From positions 62,946-126,945 of the forward strand of contig JAAOMT010000139.1 in the NCBI GenBank assembly GCA_016748015.1: a stretch of 64,000 bases of DNA. Reading direction: 5' to 3'. A program made the translations under genes and the position numbers. Under the pieces are notes generated by a model that worked only from the letters and a program-made list of their open reading frames with translations, ran no database searches and was not told where the DNA came from. The stretch comes from Geosiphon pyriformis uo1 (Eukaryota > Fungi > Glomeromycota). Within the stretch, counting starts at the first letter, position 1, and the number at the start of each line of letters is the position of its first letter. Of this stretch, positions 12,383 to 63,000 are shown in pieces.

Positions 12383-12384
12383 AA

Positions 12385-14879: not shown

Positions 14880-14940
14880 TTTAGTGCTTCCTGTGAGGTT
14901 ATAAATTCACAGAGACAGAGCACTCTGAAAATTCACAAAA

Positions 14941-22250: not shown

Positions 22251-22269
22251 GAACTATGATTCAAAAAAA

Positions 22270-22790: not shown

Positions 22791-22863
22791 TTAAACAGAA
22801 TAGATGGTAAAAATCTAATTTGAGATTTTTACATTTTTAAAAAATACCTCCAAACAGCCACAA

Positions 22864-23237
22864 CAATTAACATGGCAATGATAATTCAGTTTGTTTATCT
22901 TCCAATAGTCTTAACAATTAATGCGACAATGATAATTCAGTCACTTATCTCCTAATGACTTTAACAATCAATACAACAATAATAATCAGATTCACTTACC
23001 TTTGGATGGTCTCAGTAATCAATACAACAATAGTAATTCACTTACTTTTAGACAGCTACAACAATCCACATGAATATATTAATCAAATTTGCTTATCTCT
23101 AAATGGTTATGGCAATTAATGTAACAATGATAATCAGATTTATTTACTTTTGAATAGCCTTGACAATCAATGTAACAATGATAATTTACTTCACTTATCT
23201 TTGGATAGTTATGGCAATTATCACAGCAATGCTAAAT
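22864..23237. repeat. ~51-bp minisatellite, about 7 degenerate units
   Basis: Unit CAATYAATGYRACAATGATAATCAGATTCACTTAYCTTTGGATRG.. Confidence 0.85.
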
Positions 23238-24982: not shown

Positions 24983-24996
24983 AAAGAGAGAGATAA

Positions 24997-29766: not shown

Positions 29767-30736
29767 TGTTACCAGACAAAATTAAAGATATTGTTTAGCA
29801 TGAAATTACTCTTATAAATCTTATTATTAATTAGCATATATTATCATTTCAAATTATCACTTATTACATTAGCAAAATATCTGAAATTATCATTTAATTA
29901 ATAACCCAATTTGTACATAACACAAATGTAACCTAAGTGCGATGATCAATCATGCAATACCCTAAAATATGTAACATTTAAAAGTTTGCCAAAATTTGTA
30001 GAAATTCACCAAAATAATTGCTAGTTTACCGAAATATCTAATAGTTTGTAGAAATAACTTGTAGTTTGCCGAAATGTATCTTTAGTTCAGCAAAATTGTA
30101 GAAAAGAGCAAAGTTCAAGTTCATGGAATAGTGTTACAACAAGTTGTATAAAAAAAGAGCTTCTCTTTTCAAGAAAATATATCTTACTTTAGATTTATTA
30201 CTTAGAACCATTTCTATATACACAAAAAGAAATAAATATCAAATAATTTGAAAAACCAAATTCTTTAATTATTGCACTTGGAAAATCCCCAAAACCCAAC
30301 TAACGTTTTGAAATTGATTAGCTACCAATTTCAGTAACACTGTTAGTGACTCCAGGCCTGAATAGAAAATGTTTCCCTTAACAGAATTCTATTTCTTTTA
30401 CATTTCTTTTATTTTCTTATTATAATCATTAGGGTAGCTTATAGACGAGATTCCTGTAGAAGAGTTGACTTTCACAGCAAAGTAACTACACATTTTTAGT
30501 GAGCTTTCAGATGAGCAATTCCTAGGAAAGAGTTGATGTTTACTACAATGTAACTACACAAAGCAACTGGCACAGAATTGGCCATTCTACTTATAAGCCT
30601 AGCAGTTCAAATTATAGGAGATAATTTGAAGATAAAATTCAGTTATTGGAGGTTCAAACACTTCCCATAGTTATGAATTAACAGCATTACAACAAACATA
30701 CAAGAGCTAAGAAGAAACCAAAAACATCCAGTAACA
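29767..30736 (+). repeat. 5' LTR of element C
   Basis: TGTTACC..GTAACA; TATAAA after the U3 repeats. Confidence 0.93.
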
Positions 30737-30782
30737 TTTGGTGCTCTTCCACGGAAATAACACAGTAACAACAACTTCAAAA

Positions 30783-33700
30783 GTGGTGACTCAAACAAAT
30801 TCAAGAACTCTAGAGTATTATCAGTCAATCTACACCCACTGCAAGCAGAGATTTGACATCCCAAACAAAATTGAAACATTCAAGAAAACACTTTACCAGT
30901 ACATTAAAAATCACATCAACAATTATCTTTTTGGAGACTACAACATTTCAGAAGTTAGACTCAACTTATATGAAAACTTAGTACATCACTCTCGTCTAAA
31001 CACTCAGGATTTTAACAGTCAAACACTTGAAACATATTTCCAAGAACTCAACTTCAATATCATTCAGTATTGTAAAGAGAATTACCCAGTAGAACAGAAA
31101 TTTTCTCTTAGTTTTGAATCAGAAACAGAAGAAAGAAAAAAAAAAGGAAACAAAAACTCAGAACTACTCCCAATACATCTAAAACCACTGCCAAACATTT
31201 ACAAACTCCAGAACCAGGAACCAGCTTTAAATTACCATTCTCAATCACACTATTTCCAGCTTTACTTGCTCAACTGCAAACACCAAGCTCACCACTTATT
31301 CAGTTTTCAAGAATAGAAGATTTTCAGTCATCCAAAAGCCCTATTCAACAACAGGAACCAATATTAACCAGCACAAACCTTATTAACTACTTAGCAGAAA
31401 ATTGAAGTGAAGAGACCAAATTAGAACAAGAAACAGAAGACTCAGAAAATAAAGAAGAAATGGCTTCCACATATATCGCAAAAATCTCTGAGTTCACAGG
31501 AAAAAACAGTGAAACCAGTTCTCAAGAATGGCTTGACAAAGTCTCAAAAGCAGGAAATGCAAATGGTTGGAATGCTGTCAGAATGTTAAAAGCAATTCTA
31601 TACTTCTTATAAGGAACAGCCAGTGAATGGTTTAAAAACTTGGAAGCCCCACTAGAAGACTGGGAAGCATTCAAAACTGCTTTTCTAAAACAGTTTACTG
31701 ACAATAACACTTCCATTACCCTTCAAAATCGGTTCCAAAATATCAAGCAAGAACTAAGTAAATCAGTTATAACCTATTTTGGAAAATTCAACAAACTGCT
31801 TAGAAGGATTCACCAATTGGAAACAAATAAATACTACTCCAATGCACAAATCTTGGATCAATTCATTGCTGGACTAAAAGACAAACTTATTAAGAAAGTT
31901 TGCCCACATACACCAAAAGATTTAGCCACTGCTATTTAACAGGCAAAAAACTATGAAATGGCCATGGAAAAAGCCAACCATATCAAACTTGTTAACCTGG
32001 CTATTGGAGAAACCAGCTCAGCAGCTAAAGAAAAGATTGACCAATTAACCAAGAAAGTTGAAAACTACTTCACCAACTAACAGCAACAACAACAGCTGCA
32101 GCAATCACAACAACCACAAAAATACCAACCCCCACAATGATACAATCAAAACAACTTTGGACCACCATCCAACAACCAAATCCAAAATTGCCATTACTGT
32201 GAAATCTCTGGCCACTGGAAAAAAGATTGCAGAAAGCTACAACAAGACCAACAAAATAGGAGTAATTAACGTTACCCTCTACCACAGCAATCTTATTATC
32301 AACTACCACTACCAGTTTACTATCCACCAAGACCCCAATACCAAAATAACTATTATCAGCCCATCTTACAGCCAATCCAACAGCAATACCAACAATCACC
32401 CACACAATATTATCAAGTACCTATTCGAAAATTGATTACACAAAATCAATTCACATCACAAAACCGATACCAAGTAAACAACAATAGAATCAATTCGAAT
32501 AACCAATTGGTTCCCTAAAATTCTACTCAACCAAGACCCAACCACTATCACACTCAACCCAGTTATTTAACAATGCCAGAAGAACAGAATTTTCACTATA
32601 CTGCACTCTCGGAAGGTAAAGCTGCAGCACAACAACAAAATTTTTTTCATAACCACATCATTATTCCACCAGCTAAAATTGCTGAAAATGCCAATCTCTC
32701 TGATATCTTTCCTTTCGAGTTCAAAGCCAATGAATCACTATTTCTACTTAGCAATGCTGCTGCAAATGAACAGAAAGCAATCACAGCTATGTATACTGAA
32801 GCTGAAGTTGAAGAAAAAACAATTCGCTTAATCTTAAACAGTGGATCTACTGGAAGTATTATTACTTACCAGTTGATACAACAGTTAAAAAGAAATGTTG
32901 ACTGACCAGCTTAAACAGTAATTGTCACTGCTGATGGCATGAAAAAGACTCCAGTGAGAAAAATTGACAATTTTCCATTCACTCTTGATGGAATCACCAT
33001 TCCAGTCAAAGTTCTTGTAATGGATGCTCCTTAGTATTAAGCCCTTGTCGGAAATGACTGGCTTCAAAAAGCCAATGTGAAATTAGACTGGGAAACCCAA
33101 AAACTACAAATCTCTTATCAAGGACAACATGTTCAAGTACCTGCCACTTGTGGTACATTCAACAAATGCTCCAAAAAAACCCCAGCTTTTGAATTTGAAC
33201 CAGAAGAAGAAAAACCAATAATCGAAACATTCATGGCTCTTGGGTCAATGTCCAATTGGGCTGATGAAACTGAACAAGAACATTTTACCCCACACTCTGA
33301 ACTCAAAACCCCTGGATGGAATACCCTTTACTCAAAGACTGAGCCAAGAAAACAACACCCCTACATTCATCTTAAATATAAGGACTGCTACAAGAAACTA
33401 TCGTCAATAGGAGCTTGTATTTCACCTAAGAAAGAATATAAAAGTCATACCTGTTACTATTGCAAGGCCTGCCATCAAGAATGATGGAGCCACTTGATTA
33501 AAAGAAGCAGAAAATAGGATAGAACACTCTGTCTTACTTGTGGAAAGCAGCTTTCCGATAAATGTGACTGGATTGATGTTGCATTTAAAGGAGGAGTTTA
33601 CAATCAAACTTGTTAATATGCTTTTTTTATTGCAGAAAAAGTAAAACGTGGAACACCTTTCAATGTCACATACAACAGTGCCTTCAGCAAACTCTATCAC

Positions 33701-36370
33701 TACCCCCATGATGCTGAAATGATCTATGAACTTGCCATGGTTTTAATTAACAGAGGAACCAAAGAAGATGTCCTTCAAATAAAAAAAGCTGAATATATTA
33801 AATATACATTGGAATTAGCTGGATTCAATTATGAAGATGAAGTAAAAGTATACCACCAAATCACAAGTTACACCTACTCAATCCAAGAAGCTCAAATTCA
33901 ATGATTAGAGCAAATAAACATTAAATTATATAAGGAATGTATAATGCCATGCAATAAACAATAGTGTCCTGAATGCTATGCTCTTAGCATTCCATTGCTC
34001 AGCAAAAGCGATAAATACGAAATTGAATTCGGAGAACCTGAAGCAACAGAAAAAATTGAAACAACACCTATTTACCTCATTGAAAATCAGCCTGCTTTAC
34101 AACTCAAATACTTCAACAACAATGGACAAGGAATAAAACCGGAAAAAACACATGAAATTGATGCTGGATACAATCTACGATATCTAGAAAAAAACACTTT
34201 GGTTTTTCAACCAAATTCTCTTATCAAAATCAACTTCAAAATTGCCTTCGAAATTCCACCAGAAGCAATGATCCAAATCGCTTCACGATCATCATTGGCA
34301 AGCAAAGGAATCAATGTTAAAGGAGGAATTATAGATGCTGGATATACAGGAGACATTACAATCATGTTACAAAATGAAACCGATAAACTTTTTCAGATTG
34401 AACATGCTGAAAAAATTGCTCAAGCTATTTATTTACCCTTAATCAACATTTCAGGTTTACAATTAGTCAGTCAAAGAGAACAATTGGGAAAAAGTGGAAG
34501 AGGAACCAATGGTTTTGGTTCAACTGGACAATTCACAGTTCCAGTAAACATAGCTCTTAATGAACAAAGTAAATCTCACCAGATTCTACAACTTCCACAA
34601 CCAATTACTATTTCACCTTTTGGAGAACACCCTGAAATTTACACTTGTGAAAAGCCAACAACCACACAACAAATTTTTGAGTCCAATGAACGAATCTGCT
34701 TGGAACATAATATCTCAATCCCAAATATTTACATTCTAGAAGGAACAAAGAAAGTCCAAGTTACTTTTTACAACCCCAATAATTACCCCATAGTTTTATT
34801 AAATAACTTAAAAATTAGAGTTATTCACAGTAATATCTTTCAACAAAAATTACCCCAAACAGTCCCCAATTTCTCTGAAATTATTGGACATTCATTACCA
34901 AAAATCAACCCAAACCCCAGCTTTGAAAACTACCATGTTGTTATGGAAAAACTATCTTGAATCAACATAAAACAACTTGAACCACAACAACAGAGCCAGC
35001 TCAAAGAGCTAATTGTAGAATTTGCCAATATCTTTGCTGAAAACAACAATGACTTAGCAAGAACTGATTTGGTTCAACACCAAATCTATACAGGAGATGC
35101 CAAACCAAGGTGACAGCAAGCCTACCAAGTTGCTCTAGAAAGTCACCAATTTATCCGTGAAGAAGTACAATGGATGCTCAACAATAGGCTTATTCAACCA
35201 TCAATAAGTCTATAGGTCTCACCTATGGTCTTAGTTAAAAAGAAAAATAGAAAGATATGATTTTGTGTTGATTATTGACAACTCAACAGTATCACCATTG
35301 GAGATGCCTATCCCCTTCCCTGAATTGATAATATGTTGGATGTCCTTAGAAAATCCAAATACTTTTTAACATTAGATTTAGAGAATAGATATTGGCAAGT
35401 TGCTATGGATCCCGAAGATTGTCCCAAAACAGCATTCACCACTCAAGGAGAAAATTATGAGTTCAACGTAATGCCTTTCAGATTATACAATACACCAGCA
35501 ACATTCCAAAGACTCATGGATGTTGTTTACAAAGGTCTTCTTTGGAAATCAGTAGTTGTCTATCTCGATGATACTGATGTTTATTCACCATTTTTTGAGT
35601 TACACTTAAAACACTTGCAAGAAGTTTTTCAACGATTACAGAAAGCAGGATTGAAACTGAACATCAAAAAATGCTACTTCGGAAAAACAAGTTTGGCCTT
35701 TCTTAATTACATTGTTAGCAAAGATGGAATTAAACCAGATCCTGGAAAAATCAGCACTGTTAAAAACTTCAAGACCCCATGAAATACCACAAAATTAAGA
35801 GAATTTATTGGATTAACATCCTATTACCAAAAATTCATCAAAGGATTCTCAGAAATCGCAAAACCCCTCAACCAGCTCACTACTAAAAATGTCGAATATA
35901 AATGAACGGAAGAACACCAAAAAGCTTTTGAAATTCTCAAGGAAAAGCTGACAACAGCTCCAATTCTTGCCTATCCAGACTTCAGTAACCAATTTCAACT
36001 AGCTACAGACACTTTTTACACTGCCTTTGGTGCCATCTTATCACAATTAGATGACAACAGAAATGAGCAAATAATTGCTTATGCTAGCAGAACATTAAAA
36101 CCAGCTGAGAAAAACTACCCTGCCACAGAACTAGAAACAGCAGCCATAATTTGGGCCCTATATCACTTCAACCTTTATCTCAGGCCTAAAAAATTTGACA
36201 TTATCACTGATAATATTGGACTCAAATAGCTTCAAAACAAAAACACTCAGCTGAATGCCAAACAAACCTGATAGACAGGATTTTTAGCTAACTACTAATA
36301 CATTGTACATCACAAACCAAGAAAACTTCATACCAATGTTGATTGTCTCTCAAGAATGAGACAAGATTAG
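30783..36370 (+). pseudogene. Gag-PR-Cys-rich-dUTPase-RT-RNaseH polyprotein of element C
   Basis: ORF fragments from 31640 to 35333 are all in one frame; YLDD at 35561; ends RMRQD*. Confidence 0.92.
34105..34530 (+). CDS. dut: dUTPase domain within Pol (best-preserved copy)
   Basis: Five motifs in order: AGY(N)L, SRSSL, GIIDAGYTG, KIAQAI, RGTNGFGSTG. Confidence 0.93.
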
Positions 36371-36416
36371 AACATAAAACCAACACCCATTTGAATTAAC
36401 AACAAGACAACAAACA

Positions 36417-37802
36417 ATGAACCCCGAAAACTACAACAATCTTAAACAATATTTGGAGACATTAACAATTCCAACAGATTGGTCTGCAGATAAAAAACAC
36501 CAATTACAATAACAAGCCAAACAATACCTCTTACACAACAACATGATTTATTATTGAAACTTCAGAAACCCAGACAATTCACTCAGATTAATACAAGAAC
36601 ATAAAAAAGAAACTATTTTATATAACATACATTCAGATCCTTCATCAGCACACTTAGGAAAAAACAGCACCACCCAGAGAACACTAGAATATTACTTTTG
36701 GCCTTGAATGAGAAAAAACATTCATGAATACATTAAGTCTTGTGATAGTTGTCAAAGAAGAGAAAGAATTCACCCTACAGAACCTTTAAACCCAATTAAA
36801 GTTGGACAGCCTTTTGACTGAATTGGTATCAATTTAGTCGGACCACTACCTATTACAAACCAAGGAAACTGTTATATTGTAGTAGCTGTAGACTATCTCA
36901 CCAAATGGCCTGAAGCCAGAGCCATTCAACAAGCAAATACAAAATCAGTAGCAAATTTCATCTATGAAAACATCATTTGTAGACATAGATGCCCAATAGA
37001 ACTTTTATCTAATCAAAGAACACATTTTGTGAACAATTTAATCCAAGAAATTTATGAACAATTTAATGTCAAGAGACCATTATCTTTGCCCTACTATCCA
37101 CAAACAAATAGACTTGTAGAATATTTCAACAGAATATTGTGTGAATTATTAGCCAAAGTTTTAACCAATTTTGAGCAAGAATGGGATCTCTTTATTCCGT
37201 TAGTGTTACTAGCATATAGAACACTAAAACATGACACCACAAAAAACACACTATTTGACTTAACCTATGGAAGAACAGCAATGTTACCAATTAATTTTAC
37301 TGTGGAACCATACCCAGTATAGCCAATTAATAAAGAAAACTTTTAGGAAACACTTCGACGAAGAGCCTACAATCTTCTTAGCATATTGAAAGGAAAATGA
37401 CAAATAGCAGCCACCCATATTGAACACTCCCAAGCTTAACAAAAAGAATGGCATGACAACAAATTGCCACCAGTCACCAATAAATTTAAAATTGGAAACA
37501 AAATTCTCTTACACAGAACTAAAGCTGAAAAACAATGGAGTGGGAAATTTGAAAATAAATGAGATGGACCATTTTTTATCCATGAAGTTCTAGACAATAG
37601 ATCATATAAGCTAAGACTTGATGACAAAATCCTAGCAAAAGTTGCACATGGAGATCATTTAAAACACTATAATTCCAGAAACAATCCTAAACCATTAATT
37701 CCACAAATTAGTACACATTCCCTTTTAATTAATCCTGAAGATATTTCCCGAAATTTAGAACCAATAGTTGTCATTGAACAACCTTCCAACTTGAACACTT
37801 AA
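36417..37802 (+). pseudogene. Integrase of element C (separate ORF)
   Basis: Starts MNPENY; HSDPSSAH..CDSC; DDE core; GPF-like C-terminus. Confidence 0.9.
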
Positions 37803-37923
37803 CTTAAATTTATTATTATAGTTATCTCCTTATAATTTAGAAACAATCTCACAAAAACAAAGCAAAAATAACATAAAAACCCATACACCAAAAATAATTT
37901 TCTTTTATTTCAAATTGCTTATA

Positions 37924-38643
37924 ATGATTATTTCTCAAAACATTTAACAATTATCCTAAAAACTAATGTTAGCTTTAAAAACAATACCCAAATTATTCAT
38001 TACTGTTACTGGAAACTACATTAATTATACCTAAACAGAAGTAGTTACAAATTTAGCCCCAAATTCATGAAAATATTACCCATATAAGAAGAATACAAGA
38101 AGTTATTCTGAAATTCACCTGCCAGAACTTTTAAAGCTTGCTTTAAGAGAAAACTTAATGTTCATTCCTATTAGTATTCTACCAAATACTACTATTTAAC
38201 AAAAACTTCAACTGTGTCTTAATAAAGAAAACTACGACTATATTCTAATATATAGATATTTCTATATTGGAAAAACACTTCACGAACAAAAATGGGAGCT
38301 TACAGCAGTAAACTTCACAAAAGAAGCTATTTAAAAACAACTCCACAATGAATTCAAGACAACAGCTGGACCTACAAACAGTCATTATAAACTAAGAGCT
38401 GCTTTTAGACTTTATGACCTATTCCACACCTGTGAAAATGTCCTATAAAACCCAATTTTACAGCCTTTGAAGATTCAATACATTGGAAAGCTCACAGAAC
38501 TGAAATTTCAACAATTTTCAGACCAAATTTCTTCAATAATTTTGGATTATTATCTGGAAATTACAGACAGTACTTGGACTTTGATGGAGCTCAGTCTTAA
38601 GGAGGAGGTTATATTACCAGACAAAATTAGAGATATTGTTTAG
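37924..38643 (+). pseudogene. Accessory ORF3 of element C
   Basis: 720 bp, colinear with ORF3 of E; CAA>TAA-type stops. Confidence 0.8.
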
Positions 38644-38701
38644 CATAAAATTACCCTTATAAATCTTATCATTAATTAGCATATATTATCATTTCAAATT
38701 A

Positions 38702-38721
38702 NNNNNNNNNNNNNNNNNNNN
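38702..38721. other. Assembly gap (20 N) with a 234-bp contig overlap (38468-38701 = 38722-38955)
   Basis: N run flanked by identical sequence. Confidence 0.95.
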
Positions 38722-38865
38722 TGAAGATTCAATACATTGGAAAGCTCACAGAACTGAAATTTCAACAATTTTCAGACCAAATTTCTTCAATAATTTTGGA
38801 TTATTATCTGGAAATTACAGACAGTACTTGGACTTTGATGGAGCTCAGTCTTAAGGAGGAGGTTA

Positions 38866-39848
38866 TATTACCAGACAAAATTAGAGATATTGTTTAGCAT
38901 AAAATTACCCTTATAAATCTTATCATTAATTAGCATATATTATCATTTCAAATTATTACTTATTACATTAACAAAATGTCCAAAATTATCATTTAATTAA
39001 TAATCTAATTTGTACATAACACAAATGTAACCTAAGTGTGATAATTAATCATGCAATATCCCGAAATATGTAACATTCAAAAGTTCACCAAAATTTGTAG
39101 AAATTTGCTGAAATAATTGATAGTTTACTGAAATATCTAATAGTTTGCAGAAATAACTTGTAGTTTGCTAAAATATATCTTTAGTTCAGCGAAATTATAG
39201 AAAAGAGCAAAGTTCAAGTTCATGGAATAGTGTTACAACAAGTTGTATAAAAAAAAGCTTCTCTCTTCAAAAAAATATATCTTACTTTAGATTTATTACT
39301 TAGAACCATTTCTACACACACAAAAAGAAATAAATATTAAATAATTCGAAAAACCAAATTCTTTAATTATTGTACTTGGAAAATTCCCAAAACCCAACTA
39401 ACATTTTGAAATTGATTAGCTACCAATTTCAGTAAAACTGTTAGTGACTCCAGGCCTGAATAGAAAACATTTCCTTTAACAGAATTCTATTTCTTTTATA
39501 TTTTTTTTATTTTTTTTCTTTTATTTTCTTATTATAATCAATAGAGTAGCCTACAGACGAGATTCCTGTAGAAGAGTTGACTTTTACACCAAAGTAACTA
39601 CACATTTTTAGTGAACTTTCAGATAAACAATTCCTGGGAAAGAGTTGATGTTTACTACAACATAACTACATAAAGCAACTGGCACGGAATTGGCCATTCC
39701 ACTTATAAGTCCAGCAGTTCAAATTATAGGAGATAATTTGAAGATAAAATTCAGTTATTGGAGGTTCAAACACTTCCCATAGTCATGAATTAACAGCATT
39801 ACAACAAACATACAAGAGCTAAAAAGAGACCAAAAACATCTGGTAACA
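38866..39848 (+). repeat. 3' LTR of element C
   Basis: Repeat of 29767-30736. Confidence 0.92.
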
Positions 39849-44648: not shown

Positions 44649-46696
44649 TATTACCCAAGTAGAAAAACCAATTTAAAGTTATAAAAAAAATGTGACCAAA
44701 AACATAATGACATAAAATAACACAGAATAATACAAAAAAACACAGAATAATACAGAATAACTTAAAATAACATAATACAAAACTTGATAATATGTTATAA
44801 CACAAAATAACTAATTGAAACATAAGATAATTAGTAATAATATAGAAAAATAAGACAATAACAGAAATAGCAAAGCAATAACTAACAAGAATAAAACAAT
44901 TTTGTAAAACCAAAAAAAATGTATAAAAATGAGTAGTTGTAAAAGTTAAAAAAACAGCCAGAAAAGAATTAATTTTTCTTTTCCTTATAATTATTACATT
45001 TTATAAAAATAAAAGACTTATTTAAAAACTCAAAATCATTAATACATAGTTATCAATTATTTTATGCTTGAATTGAATTAATTCTTGTTTTATATTTTTG
45101 TTCCAGAACAAATGTTCTTAGTATAAATGTCTTGAACCCTTAATAATCTGAACCAATCACTCTTGATTATGACAATTGACAATATTAATTTATTTATTTT
45201 TATTTTTTTTTATTCTCTCTTATAAAGCAGCAACATAGAAAAATTGACTATCTGAAAATAGATTTTATAATAACCTGATAAAAAAAGGAAGCTTTTCCTA
45301 AGTTTGGATATTAATATTATTTTAATAGCTTATTAGAAGGGCAAAAAAACACAGCCAAATCCTAATAAATACACTTATTAGCTTGAAAAAGATAGCTTAT
45401 ATTCACATACAAGAAGTTACAATACCATAAAACATCTCTTTGTGCCTTATAACCAAAGAATTCCATGAGTAAATTCATATTAATCAAATAAATTTTTAAA
45501 GACTAATAATACTAATATACCAAAAAAGCCTACCAAAAAAAAATCATCAAAAGTTTTCTAAAAACCCAAATTTTGAGCACTAAACATTACTATTATACTT
45601 TACCTAGTTTACCTATAACATTTAGTGTTCTTTGTAAGATTATAAAATCCACAAAAACAGAGCACCCCAAAAATTTACAAAAGTAATGATTATTAAGACA
45701 GTAAAAAAAGATCACTTACCATATAGAAAATCCTTATTTCAATATTTTAGGAAAGACTTAGAGATACTATCAGAAACTATTAATGCAGAAACTAATTTCT
45801 GTTATTACTTGTATAACAAAATTAACTGTTTATTAAGCCAAGCAATGAACACAAAAAAACTCGAAAAACAAATTTATTAAAAGTTATTGACATACTTAAC
45901 AGAAATTACTACTTGAGTCATAGCTAAAACTCTTCATATAATTGATAAAAAAATTGAAGAATACATAACATAACAGTATTCTCAAGTAAAAGGAAAACAA
46001 ATAGCAAAGTCTGATTTTATAGAATCTGAGTCTGAATTTAATAATACAATAGTTGCATAAAAACAAGTCCAATTTACAGTTAACAAGAAATCAAGATTTT
46101 TTTTTTCAACTATTCTGTTATATTATCAGACATCAAAAAGTAGAATTTTATTTAACCAACTTATAGAAATACAAACAAAAACTCCTGGAACTCTGTATCT
46201 CTAAGGTTATAACAATCAAAATTCTTAGAAAAATACAAATTATTATTTTGAAATCTTATCTCAACAGCCAACCAACTTAGTGAAAGCATATTTTTTTGGG
46301 CACTACCACTAATACAGCTCCTAACAAAGTTAACAACCACTCCTACAAAAGAAATAACTATCTTGTTACTTATTAGTTTTAACAAAAAAAAACAACCAAC
46401 ATTAGCACTTAAAGAACAATATAATACACTACCACCAAACCTTTTGTTATTAGCAAGTCAACTACCTTTTGTTCCTTAAATAATAGCTTACTGAGATATT
46501 GTTAAATTGAAGAAATTCTCTAATAAAAAAGATAATATATATACTTGAATAGTAAAAGCCAAAAAAGCAACTATTGCTAACAATTAGGATAATACCAAAA
46601 TCATTTAAGTGCTGCTTTTTTTTTTGACAGGAACTACAGACTTCTGATACCAAAGTCTCAAAGAAAAACCAACTAGTTTTGCTGCTTTTAAACTTA
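44649..46696 (+). mobile_element. Truncated family-2 LTR element D (5' LTR 44649-45620, PBS, 5' gag)
   Basis: LTR and gag are homologous to element B; ends abruptly within gag. Confidence 0.85.
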
Positions 46697-50192: not shown

Positions 50193-51148
50193 TGTTACCA
50201 GACAAAATTAGAGATATTATTTAGCATGAAATTATCTTATAATTCTTATCATTAATTAGCATATATTATTGTTTCAAATTATCACTTATTACATTAGCAA
50301 AAATGTCCGAAATTATCATTTAATTAATAACCTAATTGCAATGATTAATCATGCAATACCCCGAACTATATAACATTCAAAAGTTCACCGAAATTTGTAG
50401 AAATTTGCCAAAATAATTGATAGTCACCGAAATATCTAATAGTTTGCAGAAATAACTTGTAGTTCGCCGAAATATATCTTTAGTTCAGCGAAATTGTAGA
50501 AAATAGCAAAGTTCAAGTTCATAGAATAGTGTTATGACAAGTTGTATAAAAGAAGAGCTTCTCTCTTCCAGAAAATGTATCTTACTTTAGATTTATCACT
50601 TAGAACTACTCCTACACACACAAAAAAAAATAAATATAAAATAATTCGAAAAACCAAAAACTTTTTAATTATTGCACTTGGAAAATTTTCAAAACTCAAC
50701 TAACGTTTTGAAATTGATTAGCTACCAATTTCAATAAACTGTTAGTGACTTCAGGCCTGAATTGAAAACGTCTCTCTTAACAGAATTCTATTTCTTTTAC
50801 ATTTTTTTTATTTTCTTTTTATTTTCTTACTATAATTATTAAGGTAGCCTACAGATAAGATTCCTGTAGAAGAGTTGACTTTCACAGCAAAGTAACTACA
50901 CATTTTTTTTAGTGAGCTTCCAAATGAGCATTTCCTGAGAAAGAGTTGACATTTACTACAATGTAACTACATAAAGCAACTGGCATGGAATTGGCTATTC
51001 TACTTATAAGCCCAGCAGTTCAAATTATAGAAGATAATTTGAAGATAAATTCAGTTACTGGAGGTTCAACCACATTCAGAAAACATGAATTCACAGCAAA
51101 CAAGCATCGACAATATTTAAGAAAAGAGACCAAAAACCTCCAGTAACA
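50193..51148 (+). repeat. 5' LTR of element E
   Basis: TGTTA..TAACA; repeat of 59086-60069. Confidence 0.95.
50383..50550 (+). promoter_or_regulatory. U3 array of ~6 GTTCGCCGAAAT-like motifs followed by TATAAA (50545)
   Basis: Motif array and TATA box present in all family-1 LTRs. Confidence 0.6.
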
Positions 51149-51193
51149 TTTGGTGTTCTCCCACAGTAACAACACAGCAAAAACAACTTCAAA

Positions 51194-54100
51194 GTGGTGA
51201 CCACACCAGACGCAACAACTCTAGAGTATTACCAGTCAATTTACACTTACTGCAAGTAAAGATTCAACATTTCAGACAGAATTGAAGTTGTCAAGAAATC
51301 AGTATACCAATATATTGAAAACCGCATCAACAATTATCTTTTTGGAAATTACAATATCTCAGAAGTTAGAAGCAACCTTTACAATAATTTAGCACACTAT
51401 TCACAATTGGGAACTGAAGACCTTAACAGTAAAACACTTGCCACTTACTTTTACGAACTTAATTTTAACATTATCAAATACTGTGAAGAAATATATCCAG
51501 TGCAGTTTCAATACATTATTGATTTTGAATCAGAAACAGAAACAAGCAACAAAGGCAAAAACAAATTGAAGCAATACTTAAGAACCACCCCAAATACTCC
51601 AACACTACTGAAAACAACTGCCAAATATTTACAAACACCTGAACAAGGAACCAGTTCAAAATTTCCACTTACTAACACACTTTTTCCAGCTTTACTTGCA
51701 CAAGCACAAACACCTAATTCACCCTTGAATTGATTTGCAAGACCAGAAGATTTTATATCACTCAGAAGTCTCACCAAACAACAAGAACCCCTGCAAATTA
51801 ATTCCAATCTTCTTGATTTTCTAGCTGAAAATCAAAGTGAACACTCTGAGACAGCAGCAAACAAAGAAAACGACTCTGAAATAACTAAAAAAGAATCAAT
51901 AAACAGTGAAAACAAAGAAGACAAAATGACAACATACATTGCAAAAATTCCTGAATTCAATGGAGAAGATATTGAGACCAGTTCCCAAGAATGGCTTGAC
52001 CAAGTTACTAAAGCTGGAAATGCAAATGGATGGAATGCTGCCAGAATGTTAAGAACAATTCTCTACTTTCTCAAAAGAACAGCAGGAGAATGGTTTGAAA
52101 ACTTGGCTGCCCCATTCAATGATTGGAACACTTTCAAAGCAGTCTTTCTTGAACAGTTCACCGACAATAATACCTCTATCACCCTTCGCAATCATTTTCG
52201 AAATATCAAACAAGAACCCTCTGAATCTGTTATAACTTATATTAGGAAATTCAACAAACTTCTCAGATGAATTCGTCAACTCGAAACAAATAATTATTAT
52301 TTCGATGCTCAAATCTTGGATCAATTTATTGCTGGTTTAAAAGATAAACTAATTAAAAAGGTTTGCCTACATGTGCCAGAAGATTTAAACTCTGCCATAC
52401 AGCATGCAAAAAGATATGAAATGGCCATGGAAGAGGCCAATCGCACAAAACTTGTAAATTTGACAATTAGAGAAACCAGCTTAGCAGCTGAGAAAAAAAT
52501 TGACCAATTCACAAAGAAAGTTGAAAACTATTTCACCAATTAACAACAACAGCAACCTCAAAGATATCAACCACCCCAAAGATGAAATCAAAATAATTTT
52601 GCACCACTTTCCAATAACCAGTCTCAGAATTGCCATTACTGTGAAATCTCTGGCCACTGGAAAAGAGATTGCAGAAAGCTACAATGAGACCAACAAAATA
52701 GGAGTAATCAATGTTATCCTTCACCACAGCAATCTTATTATCAACCACCACCACCAGCTTACTATCTACCAAGACTCCAATACCAAAATAACTATTATCA
52801 GCCTGCCCCACAGCCAATCTAACAGCAATACCAACAACTACTTACACAACATTATCAAGTACCTGCTTGAAAACTGATTACACAAAATCAATTCACACCA
52901 CAAAACTGATACCAAGTAAACAACAATAGAATCAGTTCAAACAACCAATTGGTTCCCCAAAATTCCACTCAACCAAGATCCAACCACTACTACATTCAAC
53001 CCAGTTATTTAACAATGCCAGAAGAACAAGATTTTTACCATACTGCACCCTTGGAAGGTAAAGCTGCAGCACAATAACAAAACTCTTCCTATACTCTTAC
53101 TACAATCCCACCAGCCAGAATTGCTAAAAACGCTAACCTTTTAGATATATTCCCTTTTGAGTTCAAAGCAAATGAGTCACCATTCCTGCTTAGCAATGCA
53201 GCCGCCAATGAACAAAAAGCAATCATGGCTATGTATACTAAAGCAGAAGTCGAAAGAAAGACAATTTGCTTGATCCTAAACAGTGGATCCGCCAGAAGCA
53301 TTATCACAAACCAGTTAATACAACAGTTGAAGAAAAATGTTGACCGACCAGCTCAAACAGTAATTGTCACTGCCAATAGCATGAAAAAGACCCCAGTAGG
53401 AGAAATTGACAATTTTCCATTTACTCTTAATGGAATCACCATTCCAGTCAAAGTTTTTGTAATGGATGCATCCCAGTACTAAGCTCTCATCAGAAATGAT
53501 TGGCTTCAAAAAGCCAATGCTAATTTGAATTGGGAAACACAAAAGTTAACAATCTCCTACCAAGGACAATATGCCTGGGTACCTGCCACTTGTGGTACAT
53601 TCAACAAATGCTCTGAAAAAGCCCCAGCTTTTGAATTTAAACTGGAAGAGGAAAAACCCCTCATTGAAACATTCATGGCTTTTGGATCAATGTCTAACTG
53701 GGCCAATGAAACAGAACAAAAACATTTTACCCCACACTCTGAACCCGAAACCTCTGGATGGAATATCTCTTACTCAAAACCCGAACCAAGGAAACAACAC
53801 CCCTATATTCCCCTTAAATGTAAGGACTATCACAAGAAACTATCATCAATGGGAGCCTGTATTTCACCTGAAGAAAAATATGAAAATCATACTTGTTATT
53901 ACTGCAAGGCTTGCCACAGAGAACGATGGGACCATCTAATAAAAAAGAACAGAAAATAGGACAATACTCCTTGTTTGACTTGTGGAGATATGCTACCAGA
54001 AAAATGCAATTGGATTGATGTAGCCATGAGAGGAGGAGTCTGTGATCAGACCTGCCAATATGCTTTATCAATTTCAGAAAAAGTAAAAAGAGGAACACCC

Positions 54101-56812
54101 TTTAATGTGGCATACAACAGTGCTCTTAACAAACTTTATTACTACCCCCATGATGCTGAGATGATTTTTGACCTAGTAATAGCATTAATTAATGGAGCTA
54201 CCAAAGAAGATGTTTATCAAATAAAGGAAGCAGAATACATTGAATACATCATGGAATTAGCTGGATTCAATTACAAAGATGAAGTAGAAGTCTACCACCA
54301 AATTGCAAGTTACACCTACCCAACTCAAGAAGCTCAAATTTAATGATTAGAGCAAATGAACATTAAACTATGTAAAGAATGCATTATGCCTTGCGATAAA
54401 CAGTAGTGTCCTGAATGCTACGCTCTTAGTATCCTCTTGCCCAGCAAAAATGATGAGAACAAAATTGAATTTGGAGAATCTAAAGCAATGGAAGAAATTG
54501 AAACAACACCTATCTACCTTATCAAAAATCAGTCTGCCTTACAACTTAAATACTTTAACAACAATGGACAAGAAATAAAACCCAAAAAAGCACACGAAAT
54601 TGATGCTAGATATGACCTAAGATATCCAGACAAGGTTACTTTTGTTCTCAAACCCAAATCTCTTACAAAAATCAACCTCAAAATTGCACTTGAAATCCCA
54701 CCAGAAGCAATGGTTCAAATCATCTCCTGGTTCTCTCTGGCAAGCAAAGGAATTAATATCAGAAGAGGAATAATTGATGCTGGATATACTGGAGACATTA
54801 CAGTAATGCTTTAAAATAAAACTAACAAACCATTCAAGATTGAACATGCTGAAAAAATTGCCCAAGCTATTTACTTACTCTTAATCAACATTTTGGGTTT
54901 GCAAGTAGTTAATCAAAGAGAACAATTAGGAAAAAGTGATAGAGAAATCCAAGGTTTTGGTTCAACTGGATGATTCACAGTTCCAGTTAATATAACTCTT
55001 AACACACAGAACAAATCCCACCAGATTTTCAGACTTTCACAACTAATTACCATCTCACCTTTTGGAAAACATCCGGAAATCTATACCTGTCCAAAGCCAA
55101 CAACCAAACAACAAATTTTTGAGTCTAATGAACAAGTCTGCTTGGAACATAATATTTTGATCCCAAATATTTATATTCCAGAAGGAACAAAGAAAGTCCA
55201 AGTTACTTTTTACAACTCCAATAATTACCCCATAATTTTATTAAATAATTTAGAAATTGGAGTTATTCACAGTAATATATTTCAACAAGAATTACCACAA
55301 ACAGTCCCTGATTTCTCTGAAATTATTAGACATTTACTACCAAAAATCAACCCAAACCCCAGCTCCGAAAACTACCATGTTGTCATGGAAAAACTATCTT
55401 GAATCAACATGGAACAACTTGAACCACAACAACAGACCCAGCTCAAAGAGCTAATTGTAGAATTTGCCGATATCTTCACTGAAAACAACAATGACTTAAG
55501 AAGAACCAATTTGGTCCAACACCAAATTTATACAGGAAATGCCAAACCAAGAAGACAACAAGCATATCGAGTTGCTCCAGAAAGCCACCAATTCATCCGA
55601 GAAGAAGTACAACAAATGCTTAACAATAGGCTCATTCAACCCTCTATGAGTCCTTGGGCTTCACCTGTAGTGCTAGTTAAAAAGAAAAATGGAAAGATCC
55701 GATTTTGTGTTGACTATCAACAATTCAACAGTATTACAATTAGAGATGCCTATCCCCTTCCTCAGATTAATGACATGTTAGATGCTCTTGGAAAATCCAA
55801 ATACTTTTCAACACTAGATTTAGAAAGCGGTTACTGGCAAGTTGCTATGGATCCCAAAGATTACCCCAAAACAGCATTCACTACCCAAGGCAGAAATTAT
55901 GAGTTCAATGTAATGCCTTTCGGATTATGCAATGCACCAGCAATGTTTCAGAGATTAATGGATGTTGTGTACCAAAAACTTCTTTAAAAGTCAGTAGTCG
56001 TTTATCTTGACAATACTGATGTTTATTTTCCATCATTCGAATTATACTTAAAACACCTGTGAGAAGTTTTTCAACGATTATGAAAAGCAGAACTAAAACT
56101 CAATATCGAAAAATGCTACTTTGGAAAAACAAGCCTGGCCTTCCTTGGTTATATCATTAGTAAAGATGGAATCAAACCAGACCCTGAAAAAATTAGTGTT
56201 GTCAAAAACTTCAAAACTTCTTAAAACACTACAGAACTAAGAGGATTCATAGAATTAGCATCCTACTATCAAAAGTTTATTAAAGAATTTTCGGAAATTG
56301 CAAAACCCTTCAACCAGCTCACCACCAAAAACGTTGAATACAAATGGACTACCGAACACCAAAAAGCTTTTGAAATTCTCAAGGAAAAACTAACAACAGC
56401 TCCAATTCTTACCTATCTGGATTTCAGCAACTAATTTCAACTAACTACAGATGCTTTGTATACTGCCTTTGGTGCCATCTTATCACAACTAGATGACAAT
56501 GGAAATGAGCGAGTAATTGCTTATGCTAGCAGAACATTAAAACCAGTTGAGAAAAACTATTCTGCCACAGAACTAGAAACAGCAGCCATAATTTGGGCCC
56601 TATACCATTTCAACTTTTATCTTAGGCCTAAAGAATTCGATATTATCACTGATAATATTGGACTCAAATGGCTTCAGAACAAAAATACTCAGCTGAATAC
56701 AAAACAAACCTGATGGACAGGATTTCTAGCAAACTATCGATACATAGTACATCACAAACCAGGAAAACTCCACACCAATGTTGACTGTTTCTCCAGAATG
56801 AGACAAGATTAG
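51194..56812 (+). pseudogene. Gag-PR-Cys-rich-dUTPase-RT-RNaseH polyprotein of element E (single frame, ~1870 codons, point-mutation stops only)
   Basis: ORFs 51407, 51926, 52316, 53225, 53525, 53975, 54437, 55142, 55409 and 56456 all share one frame. Confidence 0.93.
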
Positions 56813-56864
56813 AAAAACACAAAAACCAACACTCAACTTAACCAACCAAAAGAGCCAACAACCA

Positions 56865-58276
56865 ATGAATTTGGAAAACTACAACGATCTCAAACAATAT
56901 TTGGAAACATTAACAATCCCAACAGATTGGTCTCCAAATGAAAAACATCGACTACAACAACAAGCCAAACAATATTTTCTACACAACAACATTATTTATT
57001 ATCGAAATTTCAAAAACCCAGACAAACCACTCAGATTAATACAAGAACAAGAAAAAGAGACTATATTATACAACATGCACTCAGATCCTTCATCAGCCCA
57101 CTTCGGAAAAGACAGCACCACTCAAAGAACACTAGAATACTACTTTTGGCCTCGAATGAAAAAAGACATTCACGAATATGTCGAATCTTGTGATAGTTGT
57201 CAAAGAAGAGGAGGAACTCGCCCTACAGAATCTTTAAACCCAATCAAAGTTGGACAGCCTTTTAACAGAGTTGGTATCAATTTAGTCAGACCACTACCTA
57301 TCACAAACCAAGGAAACCATTATATTGCAGTAGTTGTAGACTATCTCACCAAATGGCCTAAAGCCAGAGCCATTCAATGGGCAGATGCAAAATCAGTAGC
57401 AAACTTTATCTATGAAGACATTATTTGTAGACATAGATGCCCAATAGAACTTTTATCTGATTAAGGAACACATTTTGTGAACAATTTAATCCAGAAAATT
57501 TGTGAACGATTTAATATCAAGAGACTATTATCTTCACCCTATCATCCACAAACAAATGGACTTATAGAATGGTTTAACAGAATATTGTGTAAATCATTAG
57601 CCAAAGTTTCAACTGATTTTGAGCAAGAATGGGATCTCTTTATTCCATCAGTGTTACTAGCATATAGGACACTAAAACAAGATACCACAAAACACACACT
57701 ATTTGATTTAACTTATGGAAGGATGGCAATGTTACCAATTAGTTTCACAGTGGAAACATACCCAGCACAATCAATCGATAAAAACAATTTTCAAGAAATG
57801 CTTCAGCAAAAAGCCTACACTCTGCTTAGCACATTAGAAGGAAAACAATGAATAGCAGCCACCCATATTGAACACTCCCAAGCTCAACAAAAAGAATGGC
57901 ATGATGACAAATTGCCTCCAGTTACCAATGAATTTAAAATTGGAAACAAAGTTCTCTTACACAGAACTAAAGCTGAAAAACAATGGAGTAGAAAATTTGA
58001 AAATAAATGAGATGGACCATTCTTTATTCATGAAGTTTTAGGCAATGGATCATACAAGCTAAGACTTGATGACAAAATTTTAGTAAAAGTTGCACATGGA
58101 GATCGTTTGAAACACTATAATTCCAGAAACAATCCTGAACCATTAATTCCACAAATTGGTACACATTTCCCTTTAATCAATCCCAAAGACATTCCCCTTT
58201 AATCAATTCCAAAGACATTCCCCAAAATTTAGAACCAATAGTTGTCATTGAACAGCCTCCCAACTTGAATACTTAA
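56865..58276 (+). pseudogene. Integrase of element E (separate ORF, +1 frame)
   Basis: ORFs 56865-57464 and 57477-57851; H2C2 zinc finger and DDE motifs. Confidence 0.92.
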
Positions 58277-58397
58277 TTTAAATTTATTATTATAGTTATC
58301 TTCTTATAATTTAGAAACAATCTTACAAAAACAAAACAAAAATAACATAAAAACTCATATATCAAAAATAATTTTCTTTTATTTCAAATTGCTTATA

Positions 58398-59117
58398 ATG
58401 ACTATTCCTTAAAACATTCAACAATTATCCCAAAAACTAATGTTAGCTTTAAAAACAATACCTGAATTATCCATTACTGTTACTGAAAACCACATTAATT
58501 ATATCCAAACAGAAGTAGTTACAAATTTAGCCCCAAATTTATGAAAATATCACCCGTATAAGAAGAACACAAGAAGCTATACTGGAATTCACTTGCCAGA
58601 ACTTTTAAAGCTTGCTTTAAGAGAAAACCTAATGCTCACTCCAATTAGTATTCCACCAAATACTACAATTCAACAAAGACTTCAACTGTGTCTCAATGAG
58701 GAAAACACTGAATATCCTCCAATCTATAGATATTTTCACATTGGAAAAACACTCTACGAATGGAAACTGGAACTTACAACAGCAAACTTCACAAAAAAAG
58801 CTATTCAGAAACAACTCCACAACGAATTCAAGACAACAGCTGGATCAACAAACAGTCGCTACAGGCTCAGAGCTGCTTTTAGACTTTATAATCTATTCCA
58901 CACCTGTAAAAACATACTACAAAACCCAATTTTTCAATCTTTAAAGATTCAATACATTGGAAAGCTCACAAAACTGAAATTTCAACAATTTTCAGACCAA
59001 ATTTCTTTAATAATTTTGGATTATTATCTGGAAATAACAAACAGTACTTGGACTTTGATGGAGCTCGATCTTGAGGAGGAGGTTATGTTACCAGATAAAA
59101 TTAGAGATATTATTTAG
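58398..59117 (+). pseudogene. Accessory ORF3 of element E (239 aa; two transition-type stops)
   Basis: ATG at 58398 is in frame with ORF 58593-59117; runs through the PPT into the 3' LTR. Confidence 0.82.
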
Positions 59118-60069
59118 CATAAAATTATTTTATAATTCCTATCATTAATTAGCATATATTATCGTTTCAAATTATCACTTATTACATTAGCAAAAATGTC
59201 CGAAATTATCATTTAATTAATAATCCAAATTGTACATAACACAAATGTAACCTAATTGCAATGATCAATCATGCAATACCCTGAACTATGTAACATTCAA
59301 AAGTTTGCCGAAATTTGTAGAAATTCACTGAAATAATTGATAGTTCACTGAAATATCTAATAGTTTGCAGAAATAACTTGTAGTTCACCAAAATGTATCT
59401 TTAGTTCAGCGAAATTATAGAAAATAGCAAAGTTCAAATTCATAGAATAGTGTTATAACAAGTTGTATAAAAGAAGAGCTTTTTTCTTTGAGAAAATGTA
59501 TCTTACTTTAGATTTATCACTTAGAACCACTCCTACACACACAAAAAAAAATAAATATAAAATAATTCGAAAAACCAAAAACTTTTTAATTATTACACTT
59601 AGAAAATTCTCAAAACTCAACTAACGTTTTGAAATTGATTAGCTACCAATTTCAATAAACTGTTAATGACTTCAGGCCTGGATTGAAAATGTCTCCCTTG
59701 ACAGAATTCTATTTCTTTTACATTTTTTTTATTTTTTTTTTATTTTCTTACTATAATCATTAGGGTAGCCTACAGACAAAATTCCTGTAGAAGAGTTGAC
59801 TTTCACAGCAAAGTAACTACACATTTTTTTTAGTGAGCTTCCAGACAAGTATTTTCTGGGAAAGAGTTGACGTTTACTACAATGTAACTACATAAAGCAA
59901 CTGATACAGAATTGGTTATTCCACTTATAAGCCCAGCAGTTCAAATTATAGGAGATAATTTGAAGATAAATTCAGTTATTGGAGGTTCAACCACATTCAG
60001 AAAACGTGAATTCACAGCAAACAAGTATCAACAACATTTAAAAAAAGAGACCAAAAACCTCCAGTAACA
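59086..60069 (+). repeat. 3' LTR of element E
   Basis: Repeat of 50193-51148. Confidence 0.95.
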
Positions 60070-63000
60070 TCACCATTAAAACCCATATGTAAAGACTTTA
60101 CAATTTTTAAAACCAAAATTTTCAACTTATGAAATCTGGAAAAATTCTTTGTAAAAACACCATCAAAGTTCTTAAACCAACTTTTCTTAAAAATTTTATT
60201 GACTAAAAGACATACTGTCTTACAAACAGTATTCTACATTGTATTTAGATTCAAAAACCTCTTGAATATAACAAACTTATTAAAGAACAACACCACATTA
60301 GCTGCTATAGCATCTTTGAATTTATTCTATTTTACTTTATTAGCATCTTTAATATTAAACTTTCAATGATTCTTATTTATTTGCTTGTACAGAAGGTTTA
60401 GCTGTACATCTAACAAGTTACTCAAATCTACAAAAATAGAAACAGCCTGATGATTAGTGTTAAAATAATCTTTAATATTTATAATATCATAATCTATTAC
60501 TGTATTAATTAAGTTTGAAGAAATAAATACATAGTCAATTGTTTTCTTAATACCTCTAAAATTTTTTCAAGTTGATGTTTTTGCAGCTGAACTCCCAACC
60601 AATGAATTAACCAGCTCTAAGCTAAGACATTTTTTAAAATTAACACATTTGTAGAAACTATCTTTATTAAAATCACTACTTAAAATAATGAAAAAAGACT
60701 CATTTACAGTTTTTGAAATTAAAGAATTGACTTTATCAGCCTAAAATAAATGCACAGCCAGTATTATATCAGCATATAGCCACAGAATTAAAACAAAAAA
60801 TCTATTTTTAAAAAGCAATCTAACAGAAAAAAGATGACCAAGAACTTTAGAAACCCTATATACATGTTATATTAAGACAATATTTATAATAATTGCAACA
60901 TCAGAACCCAAGTAACCAAAGTCTAAACCAGAAACAAAAAAACAAATACCATTAAACTTATTAGCAATTCACAAGTAGATCTTTTTTTTTAATTTTGTTT
61001 TAGTAATAATTGAAATTAAATTGTTCATATTTTTGTGTTAACAAATAATATCTTCTTGTTTTACAGGATTGTTCATATTCCTAATATTACATGTGGCAAC
61101 TTTTTATATTTAATCAGTCATTAATGAGAAAAAATATTTAAATTTAAACTTTTATTGTCCAATTTGATTAACAATTCCAAAACCATATCTGATAAATTAT
61201 TCAATTTCTTCCCAAACTTCTTAATAATTAATTAATTCAAAGATATTATTCTTGTTACAGTTTTATTACAAATGACCACACCTGAATCTTTATTTATTAC
61301 TATATTTGTCTTTTGATTCTGTGATAAAAGAATTATTAATGGTTAATATTCAGAATTAGACTAAGAAATTATTGGCTTGAATGCATTCAACCTCTTAGCC
61401 AGTTCACTAACTTGCTCTATAAAGCTGACAAAACTATACTCAAAAGTGGCAAATCTGTTATTTATATCCAAAAAAACCAGTAGAAAAGATTTTGTATTCA
61501 AAAATGAACCAACATCAAAAGAAACTACAGGCTTTACATAAAAAGAGAAACCACTAACAACTTAAGCCCAAGTTTTATCTTTAAACAAAACTGGACAAGT
61601 AATTGGTATTTGTTTCTTTTTATATATACTTACCAGACAATTTTGATCCTGAGAACTAATTATCTGCTTACTGTAATCACCAAAATTCTTATTTACTAAA
61701 CATATACCAAAAACATAATCAAATTGTTTATATTAAGCATAACAGATTAAAAAAAGACCAGTCCAATGCAGAATTACATCTTTAAAAACTGAAACAGAAC
61801 CAATAACAGTTTTTTTAAATGTTTTATCTCGAAAATAAATTACAGTACACTTATCATGCACATATAAACTTGGATTATGGCCAATAAAACAAGTTTTTTT
61901 ATTATAAAATTCCATCAAATTAGAAAGATTATAGACTGTGGTACCAACTGGCAAAATATATAATAAAGTTCAATACTAATCTCTTAATATCCATAATTGT
62001 TTATTATAGCCAATACTATTCATACAGAATCCTTACTTATAAGAACTAATTACTTGAATATAATCAAACTAACAACTTCAAATAACTTAAACTCAACTAA
62101 AGTTTTTTGTTAAAAACCAATCAGTTATATTTTAATTAAAACTACTTTATCAAATTTGGAAAAAACTGATTCCACAGCCAATTTAAGAAGATTGACTGGA
62201 ATTTTTTTGACAATAATTTTCCAATTTATACAGTTGTTTGTTTTCTTAATATTAATATTAACAAGAATTTTCTTATTGATAGCCAATTCTTTAGTTTTTT
62301 GCAAATTTAAATCCAAAGTAAAAAAAGACCTAATTATCTTTAAAAATTTTGAAAAAGTAGAAGCTCTTCCAAAACCATCAATTTGATAGAAAATTTTTTT
62401 AATTGCAATTAATTTATTATCATTAGTTTTGTCTAGTACAGTAGATAGTTCAATATTTAATATGAAAAATTTAACTAGCTTAAAATTGCACCTATTTAAA
62501 ACATGTAACTTAACTGTTAACAAATGCTTAACACCAAAAAACTTAGGAACTGAAAGTGTTAAAATATCATCATTATTATTGCTTAAATTATTGAAAAATT
62601 TTTTTTTTGGTTAGCTACTTAAAACATATGTTCTGATATGTGTTTTTTTAGATGTGATATTGATTATTATATTATTAACTTCTGAAGCATTTAAATCTAT
62701 ATAGCTGGTTTCTTTTACAACTGTATTTTTCATGTTCTTTAAGTCTGATATATCACTGATATGGCTTGTTTTGCTATTTATTTTACTGTCTTAAGATCTC
62801 ATAGGCTTGTTATCATTAGTAATTATATCTGTAAAATTTAAAAGATCAGTAGACATCTCAATCATATTGTCAACAATAGTAGGTTTCTTGGATTTTTTAT
62901 AAGAAACACTACATGAGTAAATACTTATTAAACATTTGGTTTTGACATTAAACTAAGTCTTTAATCTAACTAAACTAAATACCAACCCATTAGCAAAAAA

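Follow-up and report, generated by a model that had tools for sequence, protein, structure and literature searches.

The window, that is the whole 64 000 nt stretch of Geosiphon pyriformis DNA that was analysed, was found by self-comparison to contain three related LTR elements, A, C and E (75–83 % alike; family 1), together with a second family comprising element B (13838–26036) and a decayed partial copy, D. The elements possess paired LTRs with TG...CA ends, a primer site and a polypurine tract, as is usual for Ty3/gypsy elements (Metaviridae), and a Ty3-type capsid, dUTPase, RT and integrase were recognized in them using Pfam. The domain order was Retrotrans_gag, Ty3_capsid, RVT_1, Integrase_H2C2 and rve, corresponding to the Ty3-type arrangement of a capsid followed by PR-RT-RH-IN. 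On the basis of LTRs, capsid type and domain order, the copies are assigned as Ty3/gypsy-type LTR elements. Their relevant features are as follows.

3476–13288, minus strand: element A (self-comparison)
11620–12339, minus strand: extension of copy A, from GTA at 12339 to ATG at 11622, with zero ATG in any frame
14941–15753, plus strand: extension of copy B (second family), with eight ATG
29767–39848, plus strand: element C (self-comparison)
30783–31462, plus strand: extension of copy C, from GTG to ATG at 31460, with one ATG at 30970 and a frameshift near 31136–31145
45683–45688, plus strand: start site of copy D, heavily decayed, GTA ATG
50193–60070, plus strand: element E (self-comparison)
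50193–51148, plus strand: 5' LTR of element E, TG...CA ends, 91 % identical to the 3' LTR at 59086–60069
50544–50552, plus strand: TATA-like box, in all six A/C/E LTRs, presumed promoter
51086–51088, plus strand: TGA, the nearest in-frame stop common to all six A/C/E LTRs, ~108 nt upstream of GTG
51151–51166, plus strand: primer-binding-site-like motif, TGGTG..., directly 3' of the LTR
51191–51199, plus strand: proposed near-cognate start, GTG at 51194–51196 (A at −3, G at +4); four families share the K/T-V-A boundary
51194–51510, plus strand: conserved N-terminal domain of ~105 aa, predicted to form five helices and interrupted in E by TAA at 51257
51511–51925, plus strand: linker of ~135 aa, T/P/S/E-rich, less conserved, broken in E by TGA at 51731
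51926–51928, plus strand: Gag ATG adjoining the capsid domain, the first ATG past the LTR
51926–56812, plus strand: Gag-protease-dUTPase-RT-RNase H, in frame with the extension, decayed in E

All copies have undergone heavy decay by C-to-T and G-to-A change. All five copies in the window are broken, with two stops each within the extensions of E and A and seven in that of B. The primer-binding-site-like motif is given the role that such motifs have in LTR elements generally. A second TATA-like motif, near 51005, is likewise common to the A/C/E LTRs, which also share a CTAAC...TAG motif resembling the 3' end of an intron. A long T-rich tract is present in the LTRs of both families (50690–50850 in E and the matching part of the B LTR); these motifs could represent leader introns or a termination signal.

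In element E the extension, gag, protease, dUTPase, RT and RNase H form one frame. The dUTPase domain is located between protease and reverse transcriptase (33965–34960 in C; 8338–9042, minus strand, in A), as it is in the dUTPase-bearing fungal Gypsy elements (e.g. PosPlaTy3-5), for which the excerpted account mentions neither an extension nor a non-AUG start (PMC2864245).

Integrase is not continuous with pol. A stop after RNase H is common to A, C and E, and integrase has its own ATG, 49–70 nt past the stop and in a different frame (56810–56867 in E, 36368–36419 in C and 6723–6651, minus strand, in A); the nucleotide at −3 of this ATG is A in copies C and A, and C in copy E. The RNase H–integrase spacer is A/C-rich and its length differs between copies by non-multiples of three, and copy B also changes frame at this point (about 20730). 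Translation of integrase from a separate ORF would call for reinitiation or a dedicated RNA. A single pol is typical of Ty3/gypsy elements rather than defining, and the discontinuous integrase was therefore treated as a variant.

The sequence-only reading of this DNA had proposed a conserved coding frame that begins at AAAGTGGTGAC and continues in frame into Gag. GTG was confirmed at 51194 (E), 30783 (C) and 14941 (B), whereas the decayed versions in A (12339, minus strand) and D (45683) have GTA. The frame joins the Gag ATG after 244 codons in E, 239 in A and 270 (net) in B, and the poly-A slip described for C was located in an A-run near 31136–31145. In-frame stops had been noted just upstream of the start in A and E; these are real, but they lie at different codons, that of A being at the next codon relative to that of E. 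The E stop is private, position 51167 being A in all aligned contigs that cover it, and in many relatives the upstream stretch is open, so that the A and E stops were rejected as a conserved boundary. The second GTG did not prove to be conserved (Ala 72, Val 36, Thr 6 and Met 4 among the 120 relatives listed). This column has the pattern of a decaying GCG, and the candidate start is the first GTG only.

Relatives of the extension were numerous. A total of 445 were found among longer proteins, and the 120 matches listed, 80–91 % identical, were without exception hypothetical proteins from Geosiphon pyriformis, a glomeromycete fungus. The same species accounted for all matches listed for copy B (20) and for families 3 and 4 (120 of 163), and for all 10 of the profile-search relatives that were looked up. 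The two latter families were revealed by a HMMER search of 1.84 billion representatives, which gave 92 matches. All these relatives were selected by similarity and are gene models derived from decayed copies that are themselves related, such that their counts do not represent independent events; gene finders, moreover, favour ATG. The four families align in register over the domain, with 16–22 % identity to copy A. Pairwise BLASTP between the A and B extensions was not significant (E 7.6), but their profile alignment was in register (probability 99.5 % for the whole protein, to which Gag contributed much) and a profile search found families 3 and 4 at E values of 9e-6 to 1e-3; together these results argue that the A and B extensions are homologous. 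A metagenome scan by protein profile gave 592 pattern matches, of which none was confirmed, and the 120 loci from a DNA pattern scan showed no similarity to the elements by tblastn or blastn; these loci are chance matches.

The start motif was matched in 262 of 337 relative proteins, this end being absent or divergent in the remainder. Residue 1 of the 262 was Val in 232, Met in 18, Leu in 10 and Ile in two, and residue 2 was Ala (186), Val (54), Thr (20) or Ile (2). The Leu cases and seven of the Met cases possess foreign flanks and resemble gene-model junctions. The residue preceding Val (n=232) was K in 214, S in six, T in seven, N in two, I in two and E in one; the S cases derive from gene-model junctions. 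Since K, T, N or I, whose codons place A at −3, occurred in 225 of the 232, the feature that has been kept is A at −3 and not an amino acid. Decay also indicated which Val codon was used. Codon 1 of family 1 yielded 13 Met and no Ile, compared with one Met and 38 Ile in the eight other Val columns of the extension (P 1.5e-7, counting only the seven models that begin at that Met). G-to-A change turns GTG into a Met codon and other Val codons into Ile codons, which points to GTG as codon 1; in families 3 and 4 the codon is deduced from protein only.

All four families, ~20 % identical to one another, start with K/T-V-A, whilst the sequence upstream is unrelated between families, and the boundary thus looks like a start site. 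Non-AUG starts normally depend on a context of this kind, with A at −3 and G at +4 (PMC3542737). The arrangement of a near-cognate codon in strong context, in frame and upstream of the gag AUG, is that of glyco-Gag, the codon being GUG and not CUG. The cassette of the rice tungro bacilliform virus (RTBV) type includes a stem-loop ~14 nt 3' of the start codon, which is enhancing and not required. No stable hairpin was detected on folding 3' of the GTG in the five decayed copies (z −0.4 to +1.0).

The sequence-only reading depended on purifying selection acting on the extension, and a codon-position signal was present downstream of the GTG. Variable columns there fell at position 2 in 27 of 163 cases and at position 3 in 78 of 162 (P 9e-10). 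This coding pattern was absent from the 34 codons upstream of GTG, where position 2 varied in 13 and position 3 in nine. Position-2 variability dropped from 13/34 upstream to 8/68 over the 204 nt that follow the GTG (P 0.004), and codon-position conservation, as judged from these alignments, begins at the GTG. Comparison of A, C and E gave pN/pS values of 0.25–0.34 in the domain, 0.39–0.55 in the linker and 0.25–0.27 in the capsid, with 0.66–1.25 in shifted frames of the same domain DNA. Codon position was preferred as evidence because raw pN/pS is weak here: non-coding LTR frames gave 0.33–0.73 (all changes), and the intervals of the transversion-only values for the domain (0.47–0.65) include 1.

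ATG was counted from the LTR end to the Gag ATG and compared with 2000 dinucleotide shuffles. The extensions of E and A had been described as ATG-free, and this proved correct: no ATG occurred in 777 nt of E (shuffle mean 8.75) or in 763 nt of A (shuffle mean 7.2), and none of the 2000 shuffles was as low in either case. Copy C had one in 723 nt (4.5 expected; P 0.03), and this ATG, at 30970, faces ACA in A and E. In A, C and E pooled, one ATG was seen against 20.5 expected, these copies being related and not three independent tests. Among the 64 trimers in A/C/E, only GCG ranked below ATG (0 vs 0.7). Codon shuffling, which tests out-of-frame ATG alone, gave P 0.001 (E) and 0.005 (A). The depletion is strand-specific, antisense ATG being reduced only slightly (25 vs 42 expected), and it stops at the Gag ATG; the first 723–777 nt of Gag contained 18 (E), 17 (A) and 11 (C) ATG, as expected.

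Copy B differed. Its several ATGs had been ascribed mostly to CpG decay, and decay can account for most of them, because four of the eight face ACA and two face ATA in copy D, no ACG remains in B, and Thr and Met alternate in the family-2 proteins. Depletion itself was not found in B (eight in 872 nt vs 10.6; P 0.20). The Gag of copy B is also ATG-poor (15754–16650; three seen vs 12.8 expected), unlike that of A, C and E.

The relative proteins carry a corresponding signature. Met per 100 residues was 0.03 in the extension vs 1.48 in Gag for family 1, and 0.27 vs 1.40 for family 3. Residue pairs whose codons could create an ATG out of frame occurred in the extension at 0.33 (family 1) and 0.39 (family 3) of expectation, and in Gag at 0.88 and 0.93, respectively. 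No such contrast between extension and Gag was detected in family 2 proteins (Met 0.63 vs 0.65; pairs 0.56 vs 0.64). A region free of AUG, like that scanned in RTBV, is present in A, C and E and, indirectly, in family 3, but not in copy B. All nine ATG sites 3' of the TATA box were polymorphic among the six LTRs, with ACG or ACA at six of them, and U3 ATG sites were likewise polymorphic. The polymorphism of the post-TATA sites is suggestive of an ATG-poor path that may extend to ~1.4 kb.

A second conserved feature lies at the capsid edge. With a pattern that admitted only M or I, Met-Ala/Thr directly preceded the capsid in 91/110, 10/11 and 45/51 proteins of families 1, 2 and 3, the remainder having Ile; the single testable protein of family 4 has Ile at this site. 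The median distance from Val to the capsid Met was 225–252 residues, lengths that are shortened by model introns. In family 3 the Met was preceded by Pro in 37 of 51 proteins, which is a weak context.

The domain of copy A was modelled with AlphaFold2 from a 26-row alignment, giving five helices over residues 7–100 (mean pLDDT 82.8, pTM 0.75). Among 173 extensions, hydropathy revealed no signal or membrane segment (best 19-residue hydropathy: medians 0.58–0.79, maximum 1.74). No family above cut-off was found for the domain in a Pfam search, and a PDB sequence search gave a single match (E 0.65). Fold searches with the model gave no clear match, the best (Z 6.8) being among unrelated helical bundles; no MA fold was present among the 50 matches listed, and Foldseek returned no E below 0.8, results that do not in themselves establish a novel fold.

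With the frame, its selection, its ATG depletion, the conserved boundary and the conserved capsid-edge Met as observed, the reading that we consider probable is that a long Gag is initiated at the GUG and that a short Gag is made by leaky scanning to the capsid ATG. A capped RNA from the LTR would be scanned by ribosomes, a fraction of which would start at the GUG in its strong context and produce long Gag with the predicted five-helix domain. Initiation at near-cognate codons covers a range of 2–30 % (PMC3542737). The remaining ribosomes would scan through the ATG-free extension on the same RNA to the capsid ATG and produce short Gag. Both starts would also yield polyproteins, since a single frame runs from the extension through gag and into pol as far as RNase H. 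As to the ratio and function of the isoforms, we infer that the short form would build the capsid, with a minority long form perhaps displaying its helical domain on the flexible tether, conceivably for targeting or host interaction.

The likely resemblance of the extension to murine leukaemia virus (MLV) glyco-Gag, PEG10 and RTBV concerns the mode of expression. The comparison with glyco-Gag drawn in the sequence-only reading is apt in this respect: MLV makes a CUG-initiated extended Gag and, via leaky scanning, an AUG-initiated Gag (PMC3542737; PMC5120145), and in both systems an in-frame near-cognate start upstream of the gag AUG would give two C-coterminal Gags. The comparison does not extend to the protein. 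Glyco-Gag, a type II membrane glycoprotein from a gammaretrovirus, has 88 added residues that include a signal/anchor, whereas the fungal element has a GUG, ~240–270 codons, no hydrophobic segment and a predicted soluble helical domain; as it lacks a signal/anchor segment, the extension is not a glyco-Gag. PEG10 is likewise a Ty3/gypsy-derived gag with an upstream non-AUG start and an AUG start, both established by mutagenesis (PMC2800197). It differs in being a non-mobile, domesticated mammalian host gene with its CUG 34 codons upstream; a splice variant also provides an AUG there, and the excerpted account describes no folded extra domain (PMC2800197). RTBV and badnavirus ORFs I–II–III share reverse transcription, a non-AUG first start and an AUG-free scanned stretch, ~900 nt free of internal AUG in RTBV (PMC5902531), but these are separate ORFs with an AUU start and ribosome shunting, whereas the fungal element has one in-frame extension. 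Conserved near-cognate starts are also found in filamentous fungi, where those of cpc-1 give N-terminal extensions of 120–180 aa (PMC5487733); this is a host transcription factor of Dikarya, not Glomeromycotina, with several near-cognate codons and uORF control.

The long form might instead acquire an AUG by splicing. A spliced upstream ATG exon, against which the sequence-only reading had itself cautioned, was not found as far as the DNA and protein sequences allow. Gene models often enter the frame from the LTR via introns of 35–52 nt, many of them from the equivalent of an ATG at 50985. The 53-codon LTR ORF that begins there was rejected as a product of CpG decay (ATG in one of six LTRs, ACG/ACA in five). 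In the splicing explanation, an LTR exon ending in A and joined at AAAG/TG would create ATG-GCN, the spliced RNA giving the long protein and the unspliced RNA being scanned to the Gag ATG; in a variant, the LTR would supply an ATG exon. Such a start would account for the ATG depletion and the conserved boundary together, AG is present at −1/+1 in all five window copies, many gene models join here or slightly upstream, and the LTRs contain the intron-like CTAAC...TAG and T-rich tract. We nevertheless consider it unlikely. The decay-derived LTR ATG used by the models lies in a frame that is closed by stops in both C LTRs, the introns needed are very short, no YTRAY branch motif occurs in the ~90 nt upstream in any of the five copies, alternative AG sites lie 18–30 nt upstream, and AAG is a rare splice acceptor. 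In addition, three family-3 proteins (P0225, P0253 and P0281) have Asn before the boundary, so that AG is lost and A at −3 is kept. Another near-cognate codon further upstream is a highly improbable start for the long form. Some 35 open codons separate the TGA at 51086 from the GTG, many relatives likewise have no stop in this interval, and fungal extensions can use several near-cognate starts (PMC5487733), but this stretch shows no coding signal (pN/pS 0.7–1.3), overlaps the LTR end and primer site, carries an extra A directly before the GTG in copy C, and is not shared between families.

Alternatives to leaky scanning concern the short form. Were the GUG the sole start, the extension would be a matrix-position Gag domain and the conserved Met a structural or protease-site residue. 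The single frame from GTG through RNase H in E is compatible with this, as are the weak context of the family-3 Met and the very efficient GUG start known from parainfluenza virus 1 (PMC3542737). It is quite unlikely, since it gives no reason for a purge of out-of-frame ATGs over 730 nt that is relaxed right past the Met, or for the retention of Met-Ala/Thr at the capsid edge across families ~20 % alike. Short Gag could also come from its own RNA (by an internal promoter or splicing), or from shunting or reinitiation, with the depletion due, for example, to composition or RNA structure. Ty1 has an internally initiated RNA (PMC5408680), the separately started integrase and the extra 3' ORF of the present elements suggest further RNAs or reinitiation, and family 2 has no depletion contrast. 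This explanation seems very unlikely given that the depletion survives both dinucleotide- and codon-preserving shuffles, is confined to the sense strand and ends at the Gag ATG.

Expression of Gag from two starts was previously known from one gammaretrovirus and from the domesticated PEG10. A survey of titles and abstract openings, mostly from outside subscription journals, revealed no non-AUG Gag extension in a mobile LTR retrotransposon, a fungus or Geosiphon. The signature of GUG initiation with leaky scanning is unusually clean here, is retained across four families ~20 % alike and adds a folded domain that has no Pfam or clear structural match. A broader picture can be advanced tentatively, in which a complex fungal retroelement lineage would be expressed wholly by non-canonical translation. 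Its long Gag would start at a GUG and carry a helical domain of no known class, which in a retrotransposon would correspond to matrix or to the accessory function of glyco-Gag; its short Gag would be reached after scanning of as much as ~1.4 kb; its integrase would be initiated separately past a stop, and it would have a conserved extra ORF at the 3' end. In G. pyriformis, LTR elements account for 41.2 % of the genome (PMC11952901). A correction of annotation follows as well, because hundreds of 'hypothetical proteins' are models that reach an ATG-less frame via doubtful introns, and long ATG-free frames ahead of gag offer a general screen for other repeat libraries. One Geosiphon gene model, P0246, has a family-3 extension fused to PF02170, PF02171 and PF16486-8, which we take to be Argonaute domains; it is probably a model spanning an insertion.

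Several further observations were made in the window. An extra, conserved ORF of ~230–240 codons lies between integrase and the 3' LTR and extends into the latter (~58400–59117 in E, ~37925–38650 in C and ~5130–4425, minus strand, in A); a Pfam search found no family above cut-off for it. Element C contains a 234-base exact duplication flanking a 20-N run (38702–38721; span 38468–38955), which is probably a scaffolding join. Element B contains, at 22268–23246 and 5' of its 3' LTR, degenerate tandem repeats whose periods are close to 108 and 198 bases.
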